In this document: in pieces, positions 153-52,435 of the stretch
Layout of the letters: each line of letters opens with the position of its first letter
How positions within the stretch are numbered: the first letter of the stretch is position 1
Assembly: GCA_029856145.1 (NCBI GenBank)
Contig: JAHQWK010000001.1
Coordinates: forward strand, 544,001-608,000
Length of the DNA: 64,000 nt
Source: Promethearchaeia archaeon
Lineage (GTDB): Archaea; Asgardarchaeota; Lokiarchaeia; Sigyniarchaeales; SOKP01
Direction: 5' to 3'
Position numbers and translations under genes: made by a program
The notes under the pieces: model-generated
The model's input: only the letters and a program-made list of their open reading frames with translations
Told to the model about the DNA's origin: nothing
Databases searched by the model: none

Positions 153-998
153 ATGCAAATTTTTGAAGTAGTTGAATTACCAGAATTCCCTTACATGGAA
201 ACAAGAGAAGTAGCTCAAGGACAGATAGTAAGTGATATTTTGAATGAAACAAACAATGAAAGAGTATATTTACTTGTAGATCACGATACTAAGAGGATAT
301 GGGCATATAATGGACCAAAAAGTTCTTTTAAAGTTCAAATTTATGGTGGAATCTTAGCGGGAAAGTTAAGGCAGCAACTGAGGTTATTTTATAGGGTATA
401 TCCCCTCAATATGTATTCACGAGAAGATAAGGAATTTCAAGAAATACTTAAAAAACCGATTGGTGGAGGAAGAGCTAATCCGATCGAAAAAAAAGATTTT
501 CCAGAACCTACTCCTGATAAATATGTAACAGATATTATAATCTCAAACCCGAAAATAAATAAAGCTATAGAATATATCAATGAATTTCCTAATCCAGATA
601 ACCTTTTGAGGAGATTCATGATAATAGGAGGATCAATATTTACTGATGAAGAAGTAACTGAATCTTTTTTAAAAGAAGAAAAAACAAGCTTAAAGATTAT
701 TAAACTAGGAAGATTAAATAATGGATTTACTTATTTTCAAGATCATAATTATTCTACTCGATTAATTATAAAAGAAAGAAATATTCAAGGTATTGAGTTA
801 TTTATTCATAAAGACGATAAATCTCCTACTTTTAAAATTGATATCCCCGTTATTCATGAAGATAAATTTAGTAAACCCGGTTCTATGAAATCATTAATTA
901 AAGCGTTTCAAATCCCAAAGCAAATGAAAATCTCTAAAGAGAACTATAAAGACACTCAAGAGAAGGACAAAGTTAATCAAAATGATTCTATTGATTAA
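153..998 (+). CDS. Protein with N-terminal divergent gelsolin-like domain and uncharacterised C-terminal extension
   Basis: [39 protein letters not shown] follows the gelsolin core pattern (VYLLD...IYVWxGxxSS, then long helix), compared with the clear gelsolin at 45840-46847; stop overlaps the next start by 17 nt. Confidence 0.55.
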
Positions 999-31098: not shown

Positions 31099-32031
31099 TT
31101 ACTGTAGCTTATTTTTTATTTGTTTGGAGCGGCTCCTCAACGTTACTTCCGTGACTTTTGCGATTTCTGATACTTCTGCCTGTGTTTTCCGAAGATTTCC
31201 CGCTTTTGCGGCCATATAAATTACACTTGCGGCTAATCCTTTTGGATCTTTACCAGTTCGTAATAATCCATTTTTTGAAGCTTTGACAAGCATATTGATT
31301 GCTTTTTTCTGTGTTTCCATTGGTAAACCAAGGTCGTTCCCGAATCGATATACCAATTGCTCCGCAGTTATTGGTCGATACTTAAGTCCTAAAAGAGGTA
31401 ACACTTCCTTTACGACCATACCCAAAGAGCGGTGTACAGTCCTTCTTGGTGTCATAGAAGCTTCACAGACTTCTTCTAATAATCGTGGAAATTCATGTAC
31501 TCTTATTGCAGCATATAATGATGCCGCAATGAATCCATCAATGGATCTGCCCATTGTGAGCTTCTTCTTTGCCACAACACTATAAATCTTCCATGCTGTT
31601 TCTTTAATATAATCCGGGATATTCATTTTGCTAGAAAGCATTTTGAGTTTGGGTTTAGCCTCCCAAAAATTGCGTTCGATGCTTGAAATCAATGAATTTT
31701 GAATTTTTGATAATCTTGAGAATAAAGTTTTCCCTCTAGCATTTATTAATCTTCCCTTTGAATCGACTTTAGATGCAGGAAGCATAGTTCTTGGTCCAAA
31801 TTCCCTCCAACGAGGCTCAGTTCGCCTTCTTTTATTTACTTCTTCAATGGTGTAAGCTCGTCGTTCATTTCCTACTAAATTGCGTTCAATAACCAATCCA
31901 CAATTTAAACATACATTATCTCCATCTCGAGATTCAATACAAGGATTATTACAACATTGAGTATCTGAATTACAGTTAAGTTCACTCTCTGAACTAGTTT
32001 TTGTTGAACGTAGTCTATCTTTATAGCTCAT
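31099..32031 (-). CDS. tfb: Transcription initiation factor IIB
   Basis: Zn ribbon (CCNN..VCLNCGLV), two cyclin repeats, GRSIDGFIAASLYAA, GKDPKGLAA..IY, TQAEVSEIAKVTEVTLR. Confidence 0.95.
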   Translation of the reverse strand: MSYKDRLRSTKTSSESELNCNSDTQCCNNPCIESRDGDNVCLNCGLVIERNLVGNERRAYTIEEVNKRRRTEPRWREFGPRTMLPASKVDSKGRLINARGKTLFSRLSKIQNSLISSIERNFWEAKPKLKMLSSKMNIPDYIKETAWKIYSVVAKKKLTMGRSIDGFIAASLYAAIRVHEFPRLLEEVCEASMTPRRTVHRSLGMVVKEVLPLLGLKYRPITAEQLVYRFGNDLGLPMETQKKAINMLVKASKNGLLRTGKDPKGLAASVIYMAAKAGNLRKTQAEVSEIAKVTEVTLRSRSKQIKNKLQ

Positions 32032-41565: not shown

Positions 41566-41910
41566 TTGTCAGAATTCGAACAAAAAGTATTGAAATTACT
41601 CGAAGAAATTAATAATAAACTAGATAAAGTATTGAAAGCTGAGCCTATATCTGTAAGTTCAGCACCAGTGGCATCAGCAGCACCTTCTCCTGCGGCTTCA
41701 ACAGTTAAACCTTCTGCTATAGTTGACAAGCAAGAGGAAGAAGCACGAATGGAAGAGAAACCGCCTGTTGAGGGCCGAAGAGTCTGTCCTGAGTGTGGAG
41801 GAACCGCGTTTGCCACACACGAAGATAAAGGCCAAGTTTTACATCAAATGGGTGGCGTAAAGATTTATGCTAAGAAATACGTCTGTAAGCAGTGTGGATA
41901 CACTTTTTAA
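41566..41910 (+). CDS. Short coiled coil, Ala/Pro/Ser linker, C-terminal Zn-ribbon protein
   Basis: LKLLEEINNKLDKVL; SSAPVASAAPSPAAS; EGRRVCPECG...KKYVCKQCG; GAGGAG upstream of the TTG start. Confidence 0.85.
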   Translation: MSEFEQKVLKLLEEINNKLDKVLKAEPISVSSAPVASAAPSPAASTVKPSAIVDKQEEEARMEEKPPVEGRRVCPECGGTAFATHEDKGQVLHQMGGVKIYAKKYVCKQCGYTF

Positions 41911-42069
41911 TTTTTTTTTTTAAATTTTATTAAATCTTCTGAAAACTATGATATTTTTATAAAAACACCTATTATTAAACCTTTAAGTTAGATTTTTAAT
42001 TTCTTTATACTTTAAATTCTTAATTAGAAATGTTATAAGGTACATGTGGTGCAGAATTAAATTCCTCAA

Positions 42070-43143
42070 ATGAGAGTTAGTAAATGGATTCAATACATTA
42101 AAAGCTTTATTTTAAATAATTTTACCAGCCAAAAAGTTCCCTATTCTGCTCAGATAGAATTGACTCTGCGTTGTAATGGGAAGTGTCCATTCTGTTCAAT
42201 TCATTCTTTACCCGAATCTATTCTGGGTACTGATATGACTACTGAACAAATAAAATATTTAATCGATGAGATAGCTAAATTGGGAGTACTCTCTCTTTCT
42301 TTTACAGGTGGTGAGCCCACATTAAGAAAAGATTTACCAGAATTAATTTATTACACGGGAGTAGTACACAATTTTATGAATGGTATCGCTACTAATGGAT
42401 ATTTATTACCTAAATTATTTAAAGAACAAAAAATTGAAGGCTTGGATTATGTTTTACTTTCGCTTGACTATCCTACAGCAAAATTGCATAATAAAATGCG
42501 AGGAATTAAAGTATTTGATAGAGTTATTGAATCTATTAAATTAGCCAATAAGCATGATATCAAACCTATCATAAGCACAGTGGTTATGAAAGATAATATC
42601 CACTTATTGGATGATATTTGCCAATTAACTGAAAGATTAGGGTGTTCAATTGAATTATATCCCTGTGAAGATATAATAAGGGATTTCCCTAATAAAAGTT
42701 ACCAAATCCAAGATATTCAAGAAATGATACCGGAAATATCTGTATGGGCGAAATTAATACGATCATTAAGAAAAAAATACAATAATATTTTAACTGATCC
42801 AATAAGCGTTGAAGTGGTTGAGAAAGGAGGTTTTGGTGGATTCCCAGACCATCATCAAAATATTCTACGCTGTCATGTCGCAGAAGCGTATATATTCATT
42901 AGTCATGATGGATTTATTAATTATCCTTGTAAAATTCATCCAATTCTAAGTTACAATTCTTTAAAGTATCCAATATCGAGTATTTATAACTCTCATAAAG
43001 TAAAAGAAATAATGAAGATGCATGATAATTATCATTTCTGCAAAAATTGTCGTTTGGGGTGTGCTATCGCATCATCAATCCCAACTCGTTGGAAAACGGT
43101 TTATGCTAAGTATATTAAAGGCTTTTTAGAAGGCAAGTTATGA
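42070..43143 (+). CDS. Radical SAM protein with SPASM/twitch-like C-terminus
   Basis: LTLRCNGKCPFC, FTGGEPTL, TNG; C-terminal C..PC..CKNCRLGC. Confidence 0.9.
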   Translation: MRVSKWIQYIKSFILNNFTSQKVPYSAQIELTLRCNGKCPFCSIHSLPESILGTDMTTEQIKYLIDEIAKLGVLSLSFTGGEPTLRKDLPELIYYTGVVHNFMNGIATNGYLLPKLFKEQKIEGLDYVLLSLDYPTAKLHNKMRGIKVFDRVIESIKLANKHDIKPIISTVVMKDNIHLLDDICQLTERLGCSIELYPCEDIIRDFPNKSYQIQDIQEMIPEISVWAKLIRSLRKKYNNILTDPISVEVVEKGGFGGFPDHHQNILRCHVAEAYIFISHDGFINYPCKIHPILSYNSLKYPISSIYNSHKVKEIMKMHDNYHFCKNCRLGCAIASSIPTRWKTVYAKYIKGFLEGKL

Positions 43144-43213
43144 TAGTAAATGTCATTGCACAATTCAAAAAATTTAATTAAAAACATAGTTTTCCTAATA
43201 TAGTGATGAAATA

Positions 43214-43786
43214 ATGTCAGCCATTATAGTAATTATTCAAATAGTATTCATTACGCTAGGGATGATTGTCCTAGGGATGGTTCTTAATCATTTCTTAGGA
43301 TTAACAAAAGAAGTCTTACAAGATATGAGGAAAAAAGCTTTAAATTTTCGAGAACGTATGAAAAACGCTCAACTTATAGGAGATTATGAACAATTGATAC
43401 AAACACAGCAGGAATCAACTGTGTTTATGAAATCAATAATGAAGAAACAGATGATTCCCTTATGCTTGAGATGTATCATTTTTATTGGTATTTTTATGGT
43501 TCTAGGAATGATTTATGTAGATTATGAGAGTGGATTGCTACCATTTCCAATTCTAATTTTTGGTAGTGGTTGGTTAGCTATTTACCTAATCTTTTCAGTT
43601 TACTTTTCCTTATTTATATGGGGGGTGAAAAAACTTACAGGGATGGGAGGTAAGACGAAAAATTCTGTGAAAGAAATCATGGGGCTTGTCTCCCCCCAAC
43701 AAGATACAGGACTCTCTTCATATCCTACTTCCAATATACCTGATATGCCGAGAAGAGATTCTTGGAAAGAGCGTATTGAAGAATAG
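43214..43786 (+). CDS. DUF106/EMC3/TMCO1 (Oxa1 superfamily) membrane insertase-like protein
   Basis: TM1, cytoplasmic coiled coil, TM2, LPFPI..GSGWLAIYLIFS TM3. Confidence 0.72.
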   Translation: MSAIIVIIQIVFITLGMIVLGMVLNHFLGLTKEVLQDMRKKALNFRERMKNAQLIGDYEQLIQTQQESTVFMKSIMKKQMIPLCLRCIIFIGIFMVLGMIYVDYESGLLPFPILIFGSGWLAIYLIFSVYFSLFIWGVKKLTGMGGKTKNSVKEIMGLVSPQQDTGLSSYPTSNIPDMPRRDSWKERIEE

Positions 43787-43835
43787 GACGATCATTATAA
43801 TTAATTTTTTAATTTTTTGTTAGTTTAAAATAACA

Positions 43836-44129
43836 ATGAAGCGAAATTTTGTATTAAACCTAATTTTCATTGCTCTATTTATCCTTTTTTTGGTTTTATC
43901 GATAGTAATTGATTTCTTTTTTTTTATCCCTATTATATGTTTCTTACCCTTCTCTTTTAGAACAATTAAAAAAAACAGTACATATTTTGAAGAGAGATCA
44001 ACTCAAACTTCATCATATACGGATTCTAGAAATTCAGAAATAAGATATTGTCCGAGATGTGGTGGAGAAATAACAAAATCTATTGCAAAATATTGTTATC
44101 ATTGTGGAGAAAAATTAAATAATAAATAA
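43836..44129 (+). CDS. Membrane-anchored Zn-ribbon protein
   Basis: N-terminal hydrophobic hairpin; CPRCG...AKYCYHCGEKL. Confidence 0.8.
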   Translation: MKRNFVLNLIFIALFILFLVLSIVIDFFFFIPIICFLPFSFRTIKKNSTYFEERSTQTSSYTDSRNSEIRYCPRCGGEITKSIAKYCYHCGEKLNNK

Positions 44130-44142
44130 CATGTGGTAAATT

Positions 44143-44646
44143 ATGGTTGAAAATAATGATATTAAAAGACAAATGACGCTTTATTTTATATTTGCTGCAG
44201 CTATGATTGGACTTAATTACTTAATTCAAAAATTAAATGAAATCATTGCTCCAATCATTTGTGCTAGTTTAGGGTCAATTGAATTCTTTCAAGTATTCTA
44301 TTGCTCTACTAACCCATTTAATATGCCAGAATTAGTTGGTTCTATTGTAGCAGTTGGAATTACATATTTTATTAAGTTCTTCTTAGATAAATATCTAGTT
44401 TTTAAAAGAACTGGCACCGGAGCAAAACAAACATCAATAGAATTTACTAAATATCTTGGCTTCGCAATTCTTACTACAATAGAAAATATTGGAATTCAAT
44501 TTTTATTAACAAACTTTCTAAATGCTCCACTCGAAATAAGCGTGATTATTGCACTTAGTATTGGATATATTTCGAAATTTTTTCTTGATAGAAAATTTGT
44601 TTTTGTAAAAAATTTAGAATTAGATATAGAAAATAATAAAATTTAA
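44143..44646 (+). CDS. GtrA-like membrane protein
   Basis: Internal repeat KFFLD(K/R)..VF; about 4 TM helices. Confidence 0.72.
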   Translation: MVENNDIKRQMTLYFIFAAAMIGLNYLIQKLNEIIAPIICASLGSIEFFQVFYCSTNPFNMPELVGSIVAVGITYFIKFFLDKYLVFKRTGTGAKQTSIEFTKYLGFAILTTIENIGIQFLLTNFLNAPLEISVIIALSIGYISKFFLDRKFVFVKNLELDIENNKI

Positions 44647-44671
44647 TAGATCGAAAGGTGATTTTAAATAT

Positions 44672-45766
44672 ATGACAGAGGAAGATCGTGAGGAAGAGAA
44701 TGATAAATCTATCGTTGACGCTTTGGGTCAACTGGGTTGGGTAGAAGAAAAGGAAGAAAAAGAGAAACCTTTAGAAACTGAAGATAATCTTAAAGACCAA
44801 CTCAATTTCTTTATGGAAGAGAACAAAAGGTTAATAGAGGAGATTTCTGAAAAAATTGAAAAAATTCAAAATTTAGAACAAAATATTCAAGAATTATCTC
44901 AAAAAGCAGAAGATAATGCTACCCAGAGTCAGGCCGTTCAAAAATTATATGAAACAATTGAGAATAGAAATGATGACATTGAAAATTTAAACTCTACTCT
45001 TGAGGAGCAATCGTCAAAATTCAATACAATAACTAATGATCAAGTTGAAAAAATAAAAGAATTAACTTCTCAAATTGAGCAATTTCAATCGGAACAAGCG
45101 AAGAATCAGGATTTACTAAATAAAATAGATGAAAAAGAAATCATGATTAAAGAATTAAAAGAACAATTACAATTCCTTGAAACTGATTCAATCCAAAAAT
45201 CTAAGTTTGAAAAACTTGAAGTACTTATAGAAAAAAAGGATGAAATCATAACTGAAAAAGAAAAATCGATTTTTACCATTGAAAATGATTTAAAAACATC
45301 TAATCAGAAAATTCATGATCTTCAACAACAATTAGAAACATTCAATTTAGTAAAGAAAGATCTTGAAAAAAAAGTAGAACGAAATAAGACTTTAGTTGTG
45401 GAAATTGAAGAATTAAAACAAAAAAACATAACTATCCAAGAATTAATTGAACGGTATGAAGAAAAGTTAGAAGAAGCACATAAAAAATCCGGAAATTTAA
45501 CGGGTAAATTTGAATTAGAGCTAGCTAATATGCGAAGTATGCTTGATGACAGATCGCAGGAGATAAAAAGCATGAGAGAACAGTTAAAGGAATTACAGAG
45601 TAAAACAGGTGATACAATACAAAAAGAAGAGAAGTTTTTAAGCGACCTTCAACAAATAAAAGATGAAAAATTAAAATTAGAATCAGATCTCGAAGAAAAA
45701 AATAAGGAAGTAATTGAACTAAAAAAGAGAATCAAATTAATGCGCAGAGATATTCAAAAATCTTAA
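44672..45766 (+). CDS. Long coiled-coil protein
   Basis: About 320 aa of E/K/Q/L/I-rich heptads with no Pro after the N-terminal head. Confidence 0.85.
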   Translation: MTEEDREEENDKSIVDALGQLGWVEEKEEKEKPLETEDNLKDQLNFFMEENKRLIEEISEKIEKIQNLEQNIQELSQKAEDNATQSQAVQKLYETIENRNDDIENLNSTLEEQSSKFNTITNDQVEKIKELTSQIEQFQSEQAKNQDLLNKIDEKEIMIKELKEQLQFLETDSIQKSKFEKLEVLIEKKDEIITEKEKSIFTIENDLKTSNQKIHDLQQQLETFNLVKKDLEKKVERNKTLVVEIEELKQKNITIQELIERYEEKLEEAHKKSGNLTGKFELELANMRSMLDDRSQEIKSMREQLKELQSKTGDTIQKEEKFLSDLQQIKDEKLKLESDLEEKNKEVIELKKRIKLMRRDIQKS

Positions 45767-45839
45767 TTCAAAATGGTTTTGCTTTACTATGTATGTAAAA
45801 TCATTAAAAAAAGAGAAAAAATAAAATTATTAAAAAACC

Positions 45840-46847
45840 TTATTTTTCGCGCCACTCAATTCCACATTGGCCGCATTTATATTTTTTTCCGTACACTCGA
45901 GGGTAGTCTAATATTATATTGGACTTATCAACAGTCTCATGAATCATGTGAGGGTCATCAGTAGAGCATTCAGGGCATTTTCGGCGACCTTCAACCTTCT
46001 CAATCGTTAAAATCGTGCTGTCTGTTCTACCAGGTATTCCTGGCGCAGCACCAGAAGCCTTCACCTCAGAAATATCCGCTTGTACTTCTTCTGGAGAAAC
46101 ATCTTTAACTTCTGACTTAAATTCTGGTTGAATTGCCGCCGCAATCCTATCATCTTCATCTTCTCCTTCTAATACAGATTCAGCTTTTAATTGTACCGCA
46201 TCAGATTCCTTATAATCTACCCCTCTCGCTAAAGCTGCCATAAATTCTGCATCATCTCCTTCTTCAAAGATAGTTTCTTGCTGTAATCCTGCCCTATCAG
46301 CATCTATAGCACGTCCCCATTGACCTGATTTGACACGTTCTTTCACATTACTTGTACTTCCTTGCCAAATATACACTTTATTGCCTAAATCAGCAACAAA
46401 ACAATCTTCTGAGTCTAATGATTCTTTTTTAAATGGGATTTGAATCATTTTCATCGCATTGATATCTTCAAATTCTTCTGAAGAAACTCGATAAAGAGCA
46501 TTTTTCCATTCTGTAAAGCCCGCCCAATCACCCGTAGATACATCTTTAAGTAATGTTTTAGCGTAGTTTTTTTCAACAATTTTCATTGTGCCCATTGGAT
46601 TGATCGTTTTCATAAATTCTTTTGATTCTTGTCCTTGATCTACTGTAATTATTTTAGCAGCGCCACCACGTTGTTGGTCGAGTGTTCTTGCTTGAGCAGC
46701 ACCTGCGGTCTTCTCATCTACTGAGCATTTATTACCTATCCAGACATATATAGTTCTTTCGTCATCTAAAAGGTAAACGTCTCCGCTGGAAAAGACTGGT
46801 TTATTGATTGCATTTAAATTTCCTTGATCAATAAGAAAAAGTTTCAT
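45840..46847 (-). CDS. Two-domain gelsolin/villin-family protein with C-terminal Zn ribbon
   Basis: Domain 1 FSSGDVYLLDD..TIYVWIG..CSVDEK...VDQGQESKEF; domain 2 LDSEDCFVADLGNKVYIWQG..SNVKER...EEGDDAEF; acidic/Pro linker; CPEC...CGQC; ATG 46847 preferred over GTG 46859. Confidence 0.92.
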   Translation of the reverse strand: MKLFLIDQGNLNAINKPVFSSGDVYLLDDERTIYVWIGNKCSVDEKTAGAAQARTLDQQRGGAAKIITVDQGQESKEFMKTINPMGTMKIVEKNYAKTLLKDVSTGDWAGFTEWKNALYRVSSEEFEDINAMKMIQIPFKKESLDSEDCFVADLGNKVYIWQGSTSNVKERVKSGQWGRAIDADRAGLQQETIFEEGDDAEFMAALARGVDYKESDAVQLKAESVLEGEDEDDRIAAAIQPEFKSEVKDVSPEEVQADISEVKASGAAPGIPGRTDSTILTIEKVEGRRKCPECSTDDPHMIHETVDKSNIILDYPRVYGKKYKCGQCGIEWREK

Positions 46848-49647: not shown

Positions 49648-51699
49648 CTAATATCTTTCTAATCCTTGATCTTCTTCAATTTCAAATAAATCTGAATGAG
49701 GTTCAAGAAAATGGTTTTGACACATGGGACAAGAATTATATTTTGAAAGCCAAAAGGCAACACATAAATAGTGATATGTACTCCCACAGAAAGGACATGT
49801 TATTACTCTATCTTTAGCAAAATTAATAAATTTATGGCACACTGTACATTGAACATCCGAAGCAGAGATTCCTTTCCTTAATTTAACTCTATTTGTTAGA
49901 ATTGTCTCCAATTTTGCTGCTTCTACTTGATAAAGTCCTAAAGAATTATTTAATTGATTAATCTTTGATTTAATCTCTGAAATTCTTTCTTTCAACTCCT
50001 CCTCTGATAATTTCTCCGCTAAGAATGATGATAATGCAAAATTTAAAGGTAAACCTTCAAAATTTTCTGTTTGTTCTGTGATTTCAGTAATAGTAGCAAA
50101 TAAAATTCCTTCTTTTTCTATTAAATCTTTAAAACTTTTAAATATCTTGTTAAGAAGCAATGACATTAGAAATGTTAGTTGCTGTCTTTTTCTATTTAAG
50201 CTGTCTTCCCAATATTTTATTACTTGATAAATATCTACATCATTAGTTTTTACAGAATCTAATCTTTTGAATACAGAGTCTTTAATTTTCTGGATTTTGA
50301 TGTTATAATCATTTAGAATTTCTCTAATCCTTTTTAATTGAGGAAATTCTTCTTTTATTATGAATGATGCTTCATCCTCATAAACTCTTATTAAATCATT
50401 CACTTCAGAGATTTTATCTGAGATAAACTTTCTTATTTCGACTCTTATTTCTTCATCCTTAACTGTCTTAATAAAACTTAAATATTCGTTTTTTCTGCGA
50501 AAAATTTCAGAAGAAACATTCGAAAATATTTTTCTTAACGAAGCTGTAATATTTTCATATGGATTTAGGAAATTCTCTATATTTAATATCCAATCTTCAA
50601 TTTCATTAATTTTTGCAGAAAAATTTTCAATTTTATTATAATAAAAGCTAGTTATTTCTTCAAATTTTTCTGCCTCAATTACATCATGGATTTTTTCTTG
50701 GAAACTCTTTTCCAACCCTAAAATATAATAGTCAACTATTTTTGGTAAAAAGGTGCCTATTTTTTGTTCTTTAAGAGTTTTTAAATTAATACTCGAATCC
50801 TTTTCTTTTAAATCAAAATCTTCGATTTCAACAAATATTTCCTGTAATTTTTCTTCAATTATTCGTCTAAGCAAAGGAGTAATAAAATTCTTAAGATTTT
50901 GTATAACTTCTTTCCTTTCGAGTATGTTAATGAATTCTTCTCCCTGAAATACTTCAAATATCTTATTTAAATATAAGAGATGGAGTAAATCAGAATAAAA
51001 TTTAATCTTATTCTCATCTTTTGAATAGAAAAATTGATAAATTTCTTCAAAATGAAAAGTTAGGATTCGCTCTTTTTTATCCTTCTTCCTTTTATTCAGA
51101 AATACATCATTTAGACTTATAATGAAAGTGACTAATTCTTTAATTTCACTCCATTTTTCTATCGAAAGAGGTATCTTATTTAATTTAAAATTTAAATTCT
51201 TAATTCTATTAATATCAGTCCAAAGAGTTGTTGAATCCTCATGAACAGATTTAATATCTTTAATCGATTGCTGGATTTCGGACCCCAGATGAGTACTCTC
51301 TTTAAGATGATCTTCTATTTTCTGTAAAGGGGCGTCTAATGCTGTGCTTTTTTTTGCTATCCTTTTTACATTCCTGATGTTTGAGCTGAGATTTTGTAGA
51401 TTATTCGAAATAACTTGTAATTCTTCCAATACTTCGTTTTTTAAATAAAAGTAATCTGAGCTTTCAGTAGACAATAAATAACTTTCTGCAAAATTTTTCA
51501 GATCCTCTATATAACTCGAATAATGACCATAAATGTCAGTAGAAAGGTGAAGTTTTGATTTTAAATAATCTTCTATTTTAATGCCTTCAGAATCTTCAGA
51601 TTTAAGTTTTACAACCATTTCCTTAATGGTTATAATCTCATCTTTAGTGAATCCATGAATCTCCCTTGTATCATTAAATCTATTATTGGAAAAATTCAA
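49648..51699 (-). CDS. Long helical/coiled-coil protein with C-terminal RING-type Zn finger (putative E3 ligase)
   Basis: CTVC...CPFC...YHYLCVAFWL....CPMC (C4HC3 with the RING-typical Trp). Confidence 0.8.
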   Translation of the reverse strand: MNFSNNRFNDTREIHGFTKDEIITIKEMVVKLKSEDSEGIKIEDYLKSKLHLSTDIYGHYSSYIEDLKNFAESYLLSTESSDYFYLKNEVLEELQVISNNLQNLSSNIRNVKRIAKKSTALDAPLQKIEDHLKESTHLGSEIQQSIKDIKSVHEDSTTLWTDINRIKNLNFKLNKIPLSIEKWSEIKELVTFIISLNDVFLNKRKKDKKERILTFHFEEIYQFFYSKDENKIKFYSDLLHLLYLNKIFEVFQGEEFINILERKEVIQNLKNFITPLLRRIIEEKLQEIFVEIEDFDLKEKDSSINLKTLKEQKIGTFLPKIVDYYILGLEKSFQEKIHDVIEAEKFEEITSFYYNKIENFSAKINEIEDWILNIENFLNPYENITASLRKIFSNVSSEIFRRKNEYLSFIKTVKDEEIRVEIRKFISDKISEVNDLIRVYEDEASFIIKEEFPQLKRIREILNDYNIKIQKIKDSVFKRLDSVKTNDVDIYQVIKYWEDSLNRKRQQLTFLMSLLLNKIFKSFKDLIEKEGILFATITEITEQTENFEGLPLNFALSSFLAEKLSEEELKERISEIKSKINQLNNSLGLYQVEAAKLETILTNRVKLRKGISASDVQCTVCHKFINFAKDRVITCPFCGSTYHYLCVAFWLSKYNSCPMCQNHFLEPHSDLFEIEEDQGLERY

Positions 51700-51817
51700 C
51701 TTGATTTTACCCCTCGTTAATACATGAGAATCTAATAATTAGTAAACTTTCATTGAATAAATTCTTATTGGTAAAAAAGCAGAATATCTGAAATATAAAA
51801 ATAAAGGGTATAAGAAA

Positions 51818-52435
51818 TTATTCTCCTAATTCTTTAATCTCTAAATATTTTTCTTTTGAGCCATCAGCTTTAATAATCAAAATATCAATACCATTTCCCG
51901 TCATGGCATCCCGAGCGATTGAGTTTCTGATTGCTTTTTCTACCAGCTTTTCACCAGCAGTCACAGTCATATCTTTCTTATAATCCGCTTCCAAAATACC
52001 AATTGAAAGTAACATACCTGTTCCAGCAGTTCCATAATCATCTTCCATAAGTGAACCAAGTGCATCAAGTGTGTATAGTTTTGGCCCATCTGCATCCATT
52101 CCAGCTATAATAAGATTTGTATATAAAGGGGCCATTTTCCTCGAATATAAGTAGTTAGACACTAATTTTCCCATACTTCTAGTAGAAATTCTCTCACCTG
52201 TTTCTAGCTCATACAAGTTTGCTTGTGCCCGGAGAATCCGTACTAATATCTGAAAATCACCTATGAGCCCGTAACATGTTAAACCAATATAATCGGTAAT
52301 CTTAAAGACTTTTTGGGTCGATTTATTAGTGACTGTGTAACCCCATGTAGCTCTTCTATCATTTCCAAGCACAACACCATCTTTACATTTGATTGCTACA
52401 CCCACTGCGCCTGGAACCATTATTTCTTGCGACAT
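51818..52435 (-). CDS. psmB: Proteasome beta subunit, predicted non-catalytic
   Basis: KCKDGVVLGNDRRAT, KVFKITD, GLIGDFQ, RDAMTGNG; Ala at the Thr1 position. Confidence 0.93.
   Translation of the reverse strand: MSQEIMVPGAVGVAIKCKDGVVLGNDRRATWGYTVTNKSTQKVFKITDYIGLTCYGLIGDFQILVRILRAQANLYELETGERISTRSMGKLVSNYLYSRKMAPLYTNLIIAGMDADGPKLYTLDALGSLMEDDYGTAGTGMLLSIGILEADYKKDMTVTAGEKLVEKAIRNSIARDAMTGNGIDILIIKADGSKEKYLEIKELGE

Follow-up and report, generated by a model that had tools for sequence, protein, structure and literature searches.

A C-terminal zinc ribbon that a 64,000-nucleotide stretch of a Promethearchaeia archaeon genome (Asgardarchaeota, Lokiarchaeia; contig JAHQWK010000001.1, positions 544,001 to 608,000; hereafter the window) carries on a two-domain gelsolin and on a 114-amino-acid (aa) protein belongs to a family of mostly coiled-coil proteins, which probably form part of an actin-associated network, by whatever route they reach it. 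The core observation of a shared zinc domain, and the general inference that it binds something, are already in print: Akil et al. 2022 noted that homologs of their 'Zn domain' exist both by themselves and at the C-terminal end of Loki proteins that are unrelated to one another, and suggested a cellular feature or complex as the binding target (PMC9433394). To this we add the coiled-coil majority among the carriers, a stand-alone copy in other Asgard classes and, in a preprint data set, enrichment of carriers in a Lokiactin co-immunoprecipitation (co-IP). As an explanation we tentatively favour, at somewhat less than even odds, that the ribbon is an address tag, docking its cargo at an actin-proximal site via a partner other than filamentous actin (F-actin). 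The two genes and their parts are, in window coordinates:

41566..41910, plus strand: small ribbon carrier gene, 114 aa, TTG start.
41572..41637, plus strand: predicted helix of the small protein, residues 3-24, strongly conserved (structure prediction and homolog alignment).
41767..41907, plus strand: Zn ribbon of the small protein, with two CxxC pairs, a long beta-hairpin and an invariant Gly-rich tip.
45840..46847, minus strand: extended two-domain gelsolin, ortholog of Loki2DGel, 335 aa from ATG (D1, WH2-like motif, D2, acidic linker, Zn ribbon).
46539..46550, minus strand: WH2-like LKDV motif, residues 100-103, between D1 and D2 (alignment).
45843..45995, minus strand: Zn ribbon of the gelsolin, known in the literature as the 'Zn domain'; its hairpin tip is Tyr-Pro (profile and alignment).

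Both open reading frames (ORFs) and both ribbon motifs lie where the first-pass annotation of this DNA had placed them. The homology it saw in this shared module is real, with 42% identity over 50 aa (BLASTP E 6e-9) and a phmmer E-value of ~4e-6 against all ORFs of the genome, but the module occupies 10 loci rather than 2, and its two window copies fall in different subfamilies. The gelsolin ribbon shares a clade (support 100/99) with three further copies, to which it is 55-68% and 47% identical; the small protein falls outside this clade, and the two ribbons are thus not mutual closest paralogs.

To judge from its sequence, the window gelsolin is an extended Asgard 2DGel of the Loki2DGel type. 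It aligns with Loki2DGel (PDB 7WHG chain G) from residues 1-335 to 1-335 at an E-value of 1.5e-182 and an identity of ~80%, the latter by hand count on the printed alignment; PF00626 is matched in two stretches (91.7 bits, cut-off 21), and the linker carries a net charge of -11. The corresponding tail of Loki2DGel has been termed Link plus Zn domain, and the protein is nearly inactive on muscle actin in vitro (PMC9433394); binding of actin by its D1-D2 part has been published as well. The small protein is built differently, from an N-terminal amphipathic helix, an Ala/Pro/Ser linker, a short helix and the C-terminal ribbon, a layout predicted as helix 3-24, disordered linker, helix 50-60 and ribbon. 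Its coiled-coil part amounts to the single 22-residue predicted helix (residues 3-24), likely a short coiled coil; a modelled complex of three copies scored 0.19, under the mark of 0.42. With two CxxC pairs at the C-terminus and homology to the 2DGel Zn domain, its ribbon belongs to the family. The hairpin tip, however, is Gln-Met-Gly-Gly in 49/49 homologs and lacks the gelsolin-type tyrosine, while the second strand retains its invariant Tyr, which would make the protein a subfamily variant of the Loki Zn domain. The hairpin is unchanged across the 49 homologs and distinct from those of other paralogs. A full-length ortholog, mostly single-copy, occurs in most of the 135 genomes of the family. 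The JGI labels 'ribosomal protein S27AE' and 'rubredoxin' were rejected for this protein as generic names for a cysteine pattern.

We built a profile from the ribbons of this genome, and it recovers members at domain E-values of 9e-15 or lower and generic Zn ribbons at 0.004 or higher, a gap of over ten orders of magnitude. Because the two are separated in this way, the family exceeds a mere cysteine pattern. Of the ten carriers in this genome, two are ribbons that stand alone, one is the gelsolin, six are coiled-coil or linker proteins (the small one included), and the last combines the ribbon with another globular domain. These architectures bear out the earlier idea, already published (PMC9433394), of a portable module. 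The more specific suggestion that it recruits actin regulators proved too narrow, with a recognisable actin regulator in only 1/10 carriers and coiled coils in most. Ribbons are present in all 31 Lokiarchaeia genomes searched, at 4-12 copies per genome; of 149 representatives drawn from the library, 148 have the ribbon at the C-terminus and 105 have a coiled coil as judged by a crude heptad score. Rarer fusions involve a Ras-family GTPase and an adaptin-mu-like/DUF11 protein.

Beyond Lokiarchaeia, positive genomes in 15 other Asgard families hold exactly one copy each. All ten single copies that we inspected, from Odinarchaeum and from Baldr-, Wukong-, Borr-, Jord/Freyr- and Heimdall-labelled genomes, are stand-alone proteins of ~46-91 residues, and the Asp, Tyr and Lys of the ribbon are conserved across Asgard classes. 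The simplest history, drawn from a 50-residue tree without a reliable root, would be that a stand-alone ancestor multiplied and became fused in Lokiarchaeia. Pfam gave no family above cut-off for the ribbon, and literature searches, in which coverage of subscription journals was thin, returned no study of the carriers after 2022. Several candidates were rejected as family members or relatives: PRDM9 C2H2 matches in the PDB profile search, which were summed repeat matches, the candidate match P0121 and two bacterial loci.

In the predicted structure (pLDDT 90), a zinc knuckle is followed by a long, exposed two-stranded hairpin. Four Cys and one Tyr are invariant in 132 ribbons, with an Asp and a Lys nearly so, and the hairpin tip columns hold hydrophobic residues, Pro or Gly. 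The mean net charge of these 132 ribbons is +5.4, and that of the window's two ribbons +2 and +3. The sequence suggests that the ribbon binds zinc; for the Loki Zn domain such binding has been termed potential (PMC9433394). The best fold matches are the ribbons of TFIIS, Rpb9/A12 and NrdR; these are weak, with no E-value below 0.2 and no Z-score above 4.1. For TFIIS/RpoM the values are a TM-score of ~0.55, E 0.2 or higher and Z 3.3-3.6. Fold searches thus returned no close solved relative besides generic ribbons, and a shape search of the ESM Atlas ranked the family's own clusters first.

What connects the carriers with actin is a Lokiactin pull-down from formaldehyde-crosslinked Lokiarchaeum ossiferum cells (bioRxiv 10.1101/2025.11.30.690169). 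L. ossiferum has 8 ribbon carriers, five of which were matched to locus tags by accession offset plus exact monoisotopic mass, and GNAMCCOK_04980 and 05159 by mass and genome position only. The log2 ratios are 3.97 for 04136 (2DGel1), 3.85 for 05159, 2.53 for 03900, 2.10 for 04980, 1.91 for 00612, 1.74 for 04132 and 0.57 for 03553, with the eighth carrier absent from the retained rows; 03900 and 04132, both enriched, are stand-alone ribbons. The number of tested proteins, 569 as deduced from the adjusted p-values, includes 111 above the authors' cut-off of log2 1. Six of the eight carriers rank within the top 54, which gives indirect support to the enrichment on cytoskeleton-related proteins considered in the first-pass annotation. 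With the gelsolin set aside, 5 of 6 or 7 carriers exceed the cut-off, compared with 110/568 proteins overall (p 0.001-0.004) and with 2/30 unrelated CxxC-CxxC ORFs taken as a control from 400 kb of the L. ossiferum genome. Acidic carriers (isoelectric point, pI, 4.75) are enriched too. The available part of the preprint makes no mention of the five enriched non-gelsolin carriers. We take the co-IP as moderate support for an actin-associated carrier network. One carrier, GNAMCCOK_04980 (L119:427-1638, plus strand; ortholog L001:2675-3520, minus strand), joins a long coiled coil to the ribbon and ranks ~29th in abundance among L. ossiferum proteins, above actin; it is a candidate structural filament or tether. 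Separately, the 488-aa GNAMCCOK_04085 (L138:11363-12826, minus strand) reaches log2 4.5 in the same co-IP; its repeats, about nine in number, resemble WH2 motifs on inspection by eye, and it matches no Pfam family, has no homolog that we found in this genome and is unnamed in the available part of the preprint.

How an address tag of this kind might work can be sketched as follows. A single Zn ion would hold a basic beta-ribbon whose long hairpin carries the conserved Asp-Lys, the hydrophobic tip and the invariant Tyr-x-Lys, and this hairpin would dock on a protein surface near Lokiactin filaments, either a cortical scaffold or other ribbons, rather than on the filament. An ancestral stand-alone gene, still single-copy in many Asgard classes, would have been copied in Lokiarchaeia and joined there to the C-termini of other proteins. 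In the gelsolin, the ribbon at the end of its flexible linker would position the predicted calcium-dependent severing and capping domains at the docking site; coiled-coil carriers would display it in several copies; and the 114-aa protein would be the smallest carrier with multivalent binding, able to bridge docking sites or fill them. What we infer here is the identity of the partner, the oligomerisation and the role of the small protein. A bolder version, possible though in our view doubtful, is that Lokiarchaeia have a cortical cytoskeleton that has so far escaped notice and whose members dock or self-assemble through the ribbon they share. It would consist of 8-10 proteins per cell, a long coiled coil of very high abundance among them, which would scaffold Lokiactin filaments and place gelsolin on them, and it would have grown by domain shuffling from an ancestral Asgard micro-protein. 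Several observations weigh against docking on a common actin-proximal partner. Histone, ribosomal proteins, alcohol dehydrogenase, LysRS and FolE show equal or higher co-IP ratios, a background to which zinc enzymes belong; the stand-alone ribbons are small, basic (pI 8.4 and 9.2) and abundant, and so resemble background; the second-ranked carrier has an adjusted p of 0.066; the CxxC control is not expression-matched, and the paralogs are not independent of one another. L. ossiferum has no ortholog of the small protein, and a search of the sister family's carriers turned up none either, which leaves that protein linked to actin only via its family. Searches of several Asgard families failed to detect the ribbon (0/43, 0/19), which can therefore not be a partner of actin in all Asgard archaea. 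Finally, hairpin tips differ between paralogs and are invariant among orthologs, a pattern that would suit a single common partner and equally a separate one for each paralog.

The rival explanations draw partly on the same data. One is that the ribbon binds the membrane itself, with the hydrophobic tip in the bilayer, the basic belt on anionic (inositol-phosphate) archaeal lipids and the coiled coils adding avidity as in EEA1-type tethers, and would in this way tie gelsolin and coiled coils to the cortex. The mean charge of the 132 ribbons, the hydrophobic positions of the long exposed hairpin and the fusions to GTPase and adaptin-like proteins all suit it, as does the expression of PIP (phosphatidylinositol phosphate)-headgroup enzymes in L. 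ossiferum. We nevertheless think it unlikely, given the low charge of the window's own two ribbons, the invariant paralog-specific tips, which suggest protein contacts, and a cargo-free stand-alone ancestor that is hard to explain as a plain anchor; in addition, a GFP-fused Loki2DGel tail gives a uniform signal in human cells (PMC9433394), though their lipids differ. About as unlikely is a common fold with no common target, in which the ribbon is a stable cap or a paralog-specific binder, the co-IP reflects abundance or stickiness, and gene nearness is inherited order. The different subfamilies and tips, the noise of the co-IP, the unrelated genes between the two, a spacing of 3-23 kb across loci and the lack of a detected small gene in the sister family would all be accommodated. 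Such an account leaves aside that carriers, acidic ones included, are enriched over unrelated CxxC proteins, that Asp, Tyr and Lys persist across Asgard classes, and that different ribbon genes are repeatedly linked to gelsolin genes.

We give still less weight to direct binding of Lokiactin, be it the monomer, the filament end or a surface unlike that of muscle actin, in which case the coiled-coil carriers would bundle filaments or bind along their sides and the small protein would cross-link them. The enrichment of stand-alone ribbons in the Lokiactin co-IP and the abundance of GNAMCCOK_04980 speak for it. Against it stand the absence of the ribbon from searches of several Asgard families, the lack of density for linker and Zn domain in the Loki2DGel-actin crystal, and an actin co-sedimentation test of the kind proposed in the first-pass annotation, which had already been published for the isolated Loki2DGel Zn domain and showed no association with chicken F-actin (PMC9433394). 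That the ribbon acts like TFIIS/RpoM or NrdR, contacting RNA polymerase or nucleic acid, is very improbable: its best structural matches and its basic surface point that way, yet the matches are weak, the acidic Asp-Glu tip is missing, and the ribbon is fused to gelsolin and a GTPase. An address tag read by a partner near the filament remains the explanation that we prefer, with the reservations set out above.

Five genes (radical SAM, EMC3/TMCO1-like, transmembrane plus Zn ribbon, GtrA-like and coiled coil) separate the small gene from the gelsolin gene, which is encoded on the other strand. A dedicated two-gene operon was rejected because of the opposite strands and the unrelated intervening genes. 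In orthologous loci the small gene is usually 3-12 kb from gelsolin, with spacings up to 23 kb; in the sister family, a stand-alone ribbon gene adjoins or lies near gelsolin instead. Across loci, ribbon genes repeatedly adjoin gelsolin genes. Another carrier (L007:2908-3366, minus strand) is divergently transcribed from a single-domain gelsolin gene (L007:3629-4479, plus strand). In Baldr- and Freyr/Jord-type genomes (L009:827-1351, L014:1951-2472, L020, L022, L023), the stand-alone ribbon lies near a Pro-rich protein with a helix or coiled coil and a C-terminal amphipathic helix, which matches no Pfam family and has no clear homolog in this genome. Elsewhere in the window, 44672-45766 (plus strand) encodes a 364-aa coiled-coil protein, convergent with gelsolin and without a ribbon; 43214-44129 (plus strand) an EMC3/TMCO1-like membrane protein followed by a transmembrane protein with a short Zn ribbon of unrelated type; 153-998 (plus strand) a protein whose N-terminus looks gelsolin-like by eye, with no Pfam match; and 49648-52435 (minus strand) a helical protein of 683 aa that ends in a RING-like finger (a match below cut-off) and whose gene immediately follows one for a proteasome beta-subunit-like protein.

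Ribbon genes of this lineage are also interrupted by short inserts with the bulge-helix-bulge (BHB) geometry of archaeal introns, which we predict them to be. The corresponding region of the window is:

41873..41889, plus strand: insert region of the small gene, intron-free here; orthologs carry 29-32 nucleotide (nt) inserts at ~41873-41874 or 41889.

Such inserts, of several types and at two or three sites, occur in orthologs of the small gene in 10 genomes of the genus (L049-L058). They fall in the last 40 nt of the ribbon, and their removal in the BHB register restores the C-terminal Cys pair. Because ten orthologs carry them and ~50 gelsolin orthologs have none, the 3' ends of ribbon genes may be insertion hot spots. 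The tenth ribbon copy of this genome, a stand-alone one (L008:2600-2830 / L030; G000:C28:22099-22329, minus strand), is broken by a 29-nt insert. Fifteen genomes of the genus have this insert at an identical position, where its sequence changes preserve the pairing of the stem, and four lack it; just one cut restores the conserved sequence, and it lies within the motif's two bulges. In genome G015 a further, related insert of 31 nt follows 16 exon bases downstream, and genome G016 has an unrelated one of 30 nt. All 27 inserts examined show the BHB register, with a 4-bp helix, two 3-nt bulges and frame-restoring cuts; 4/4 helix pairs form in 23 of them, and 3/4 plus the full inner stem in the other 4, against a chance expectation of 0.2% per register or 1.4% for the best of six. 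That the inserts are peculiar to ribbon genes was rejected. They are a lineage-wide trait, because similar inserts also break the ribosomal protein uS3 gene of this genome (named by eye; G000:C8 ~31430-31460, minus strand), where removal of a 30-nt stop-containing hairpin at a relaxed BHB register yields the sequence of an insert-free relative, and the thioredoxin gene of a relative (G002:C1 ~288860, L113), where a 30-nt BHB insert lies just before the active-site motif. A DnaG-like gene (G002:C1 ~28160, L100) carries a frameshifting insert of 33-37 nt. The inserts share BHB geometry, and removal that restores the protein, with the cbf5 pre-mRNA intron of Crenarchaeota (PMC2738675), but they lie at several independent sites with several sequences and are absent from the window. 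No paper on Asgard mRNA introns was found in a literature search with thin coverage of subscription journals.

The ribbon bears on how Lokiactin filaments are scaffolded and attached to the membrane in Asgard protrusions, where the known regulators are mainly gelsolins and profilins. The co-IP enrichment of most carriers suggests that a network of proteins, as yet unstudied, surrounds the cytoskeleton of these archaea. The ribbon singles out a few candidates for it in an organism that is in culture (GNAMCCOK_04980, 05159, 00612, 03900, 04132 and 03553), and could serve as a 50-residue bait for finding the carriers' target. The passage from one stand-alone gene to about ten fusions would represent eukaryote-like domain shuffling inside one Asgard class.

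Among known zinc ribbons, the C-terminal ribbons of TFIIS, RpoM and Rpb9 and that of NrdR are one-Zn beta-ribbons with a long hairpin, as is the present family by prediction; in comparison with TFIIS/RpoM, our ribbon has a longer hairpin, a hydrophobic tip and no acidic Asp-Glu pair, and the scores are weak. The FYVE domain has eight Cys, two Zn ions and a basic HHC motif, whereas the ribbon has four Cys only and is not a FYVE domain. EEA1 with its FYVE domain, CLIP-170 with its zinc knuckles and NEMO with its zinc finger combine a dimerising rod, a linker and a terminal Zn-binding targeting domain. These eukaryotic proteins are laid out like the coiled-coil ribbon carriers, but we found no sequence or fold kinship, and the likeness is one of analogy only. 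The closest known system is Loki2DGel / MKD1-2DGel (PDB 7WHG), together with L. ossiferum B35_2DGel1, which has the same 335-aa D1-WH2-D2-Link-Zn architecture as the window gelsolin; the WH2-like motif is LKDV in the window protein and in the L. ossiferum 2DGels, unlike the LVDV of Loki2DGel. The small protein differs from the 'Zn domain' of Akil et al. 2022 in lacking the tip Tyr. That study did not consistently detect the domain outside Loki (PMC9433394), left the carriers undescribed and tested F-actin only, whereas here a single stand-alone copy appears in many other Asgard classes, coiled coils dominate among the carriers, and carriers are enriched together with Lokiactin.

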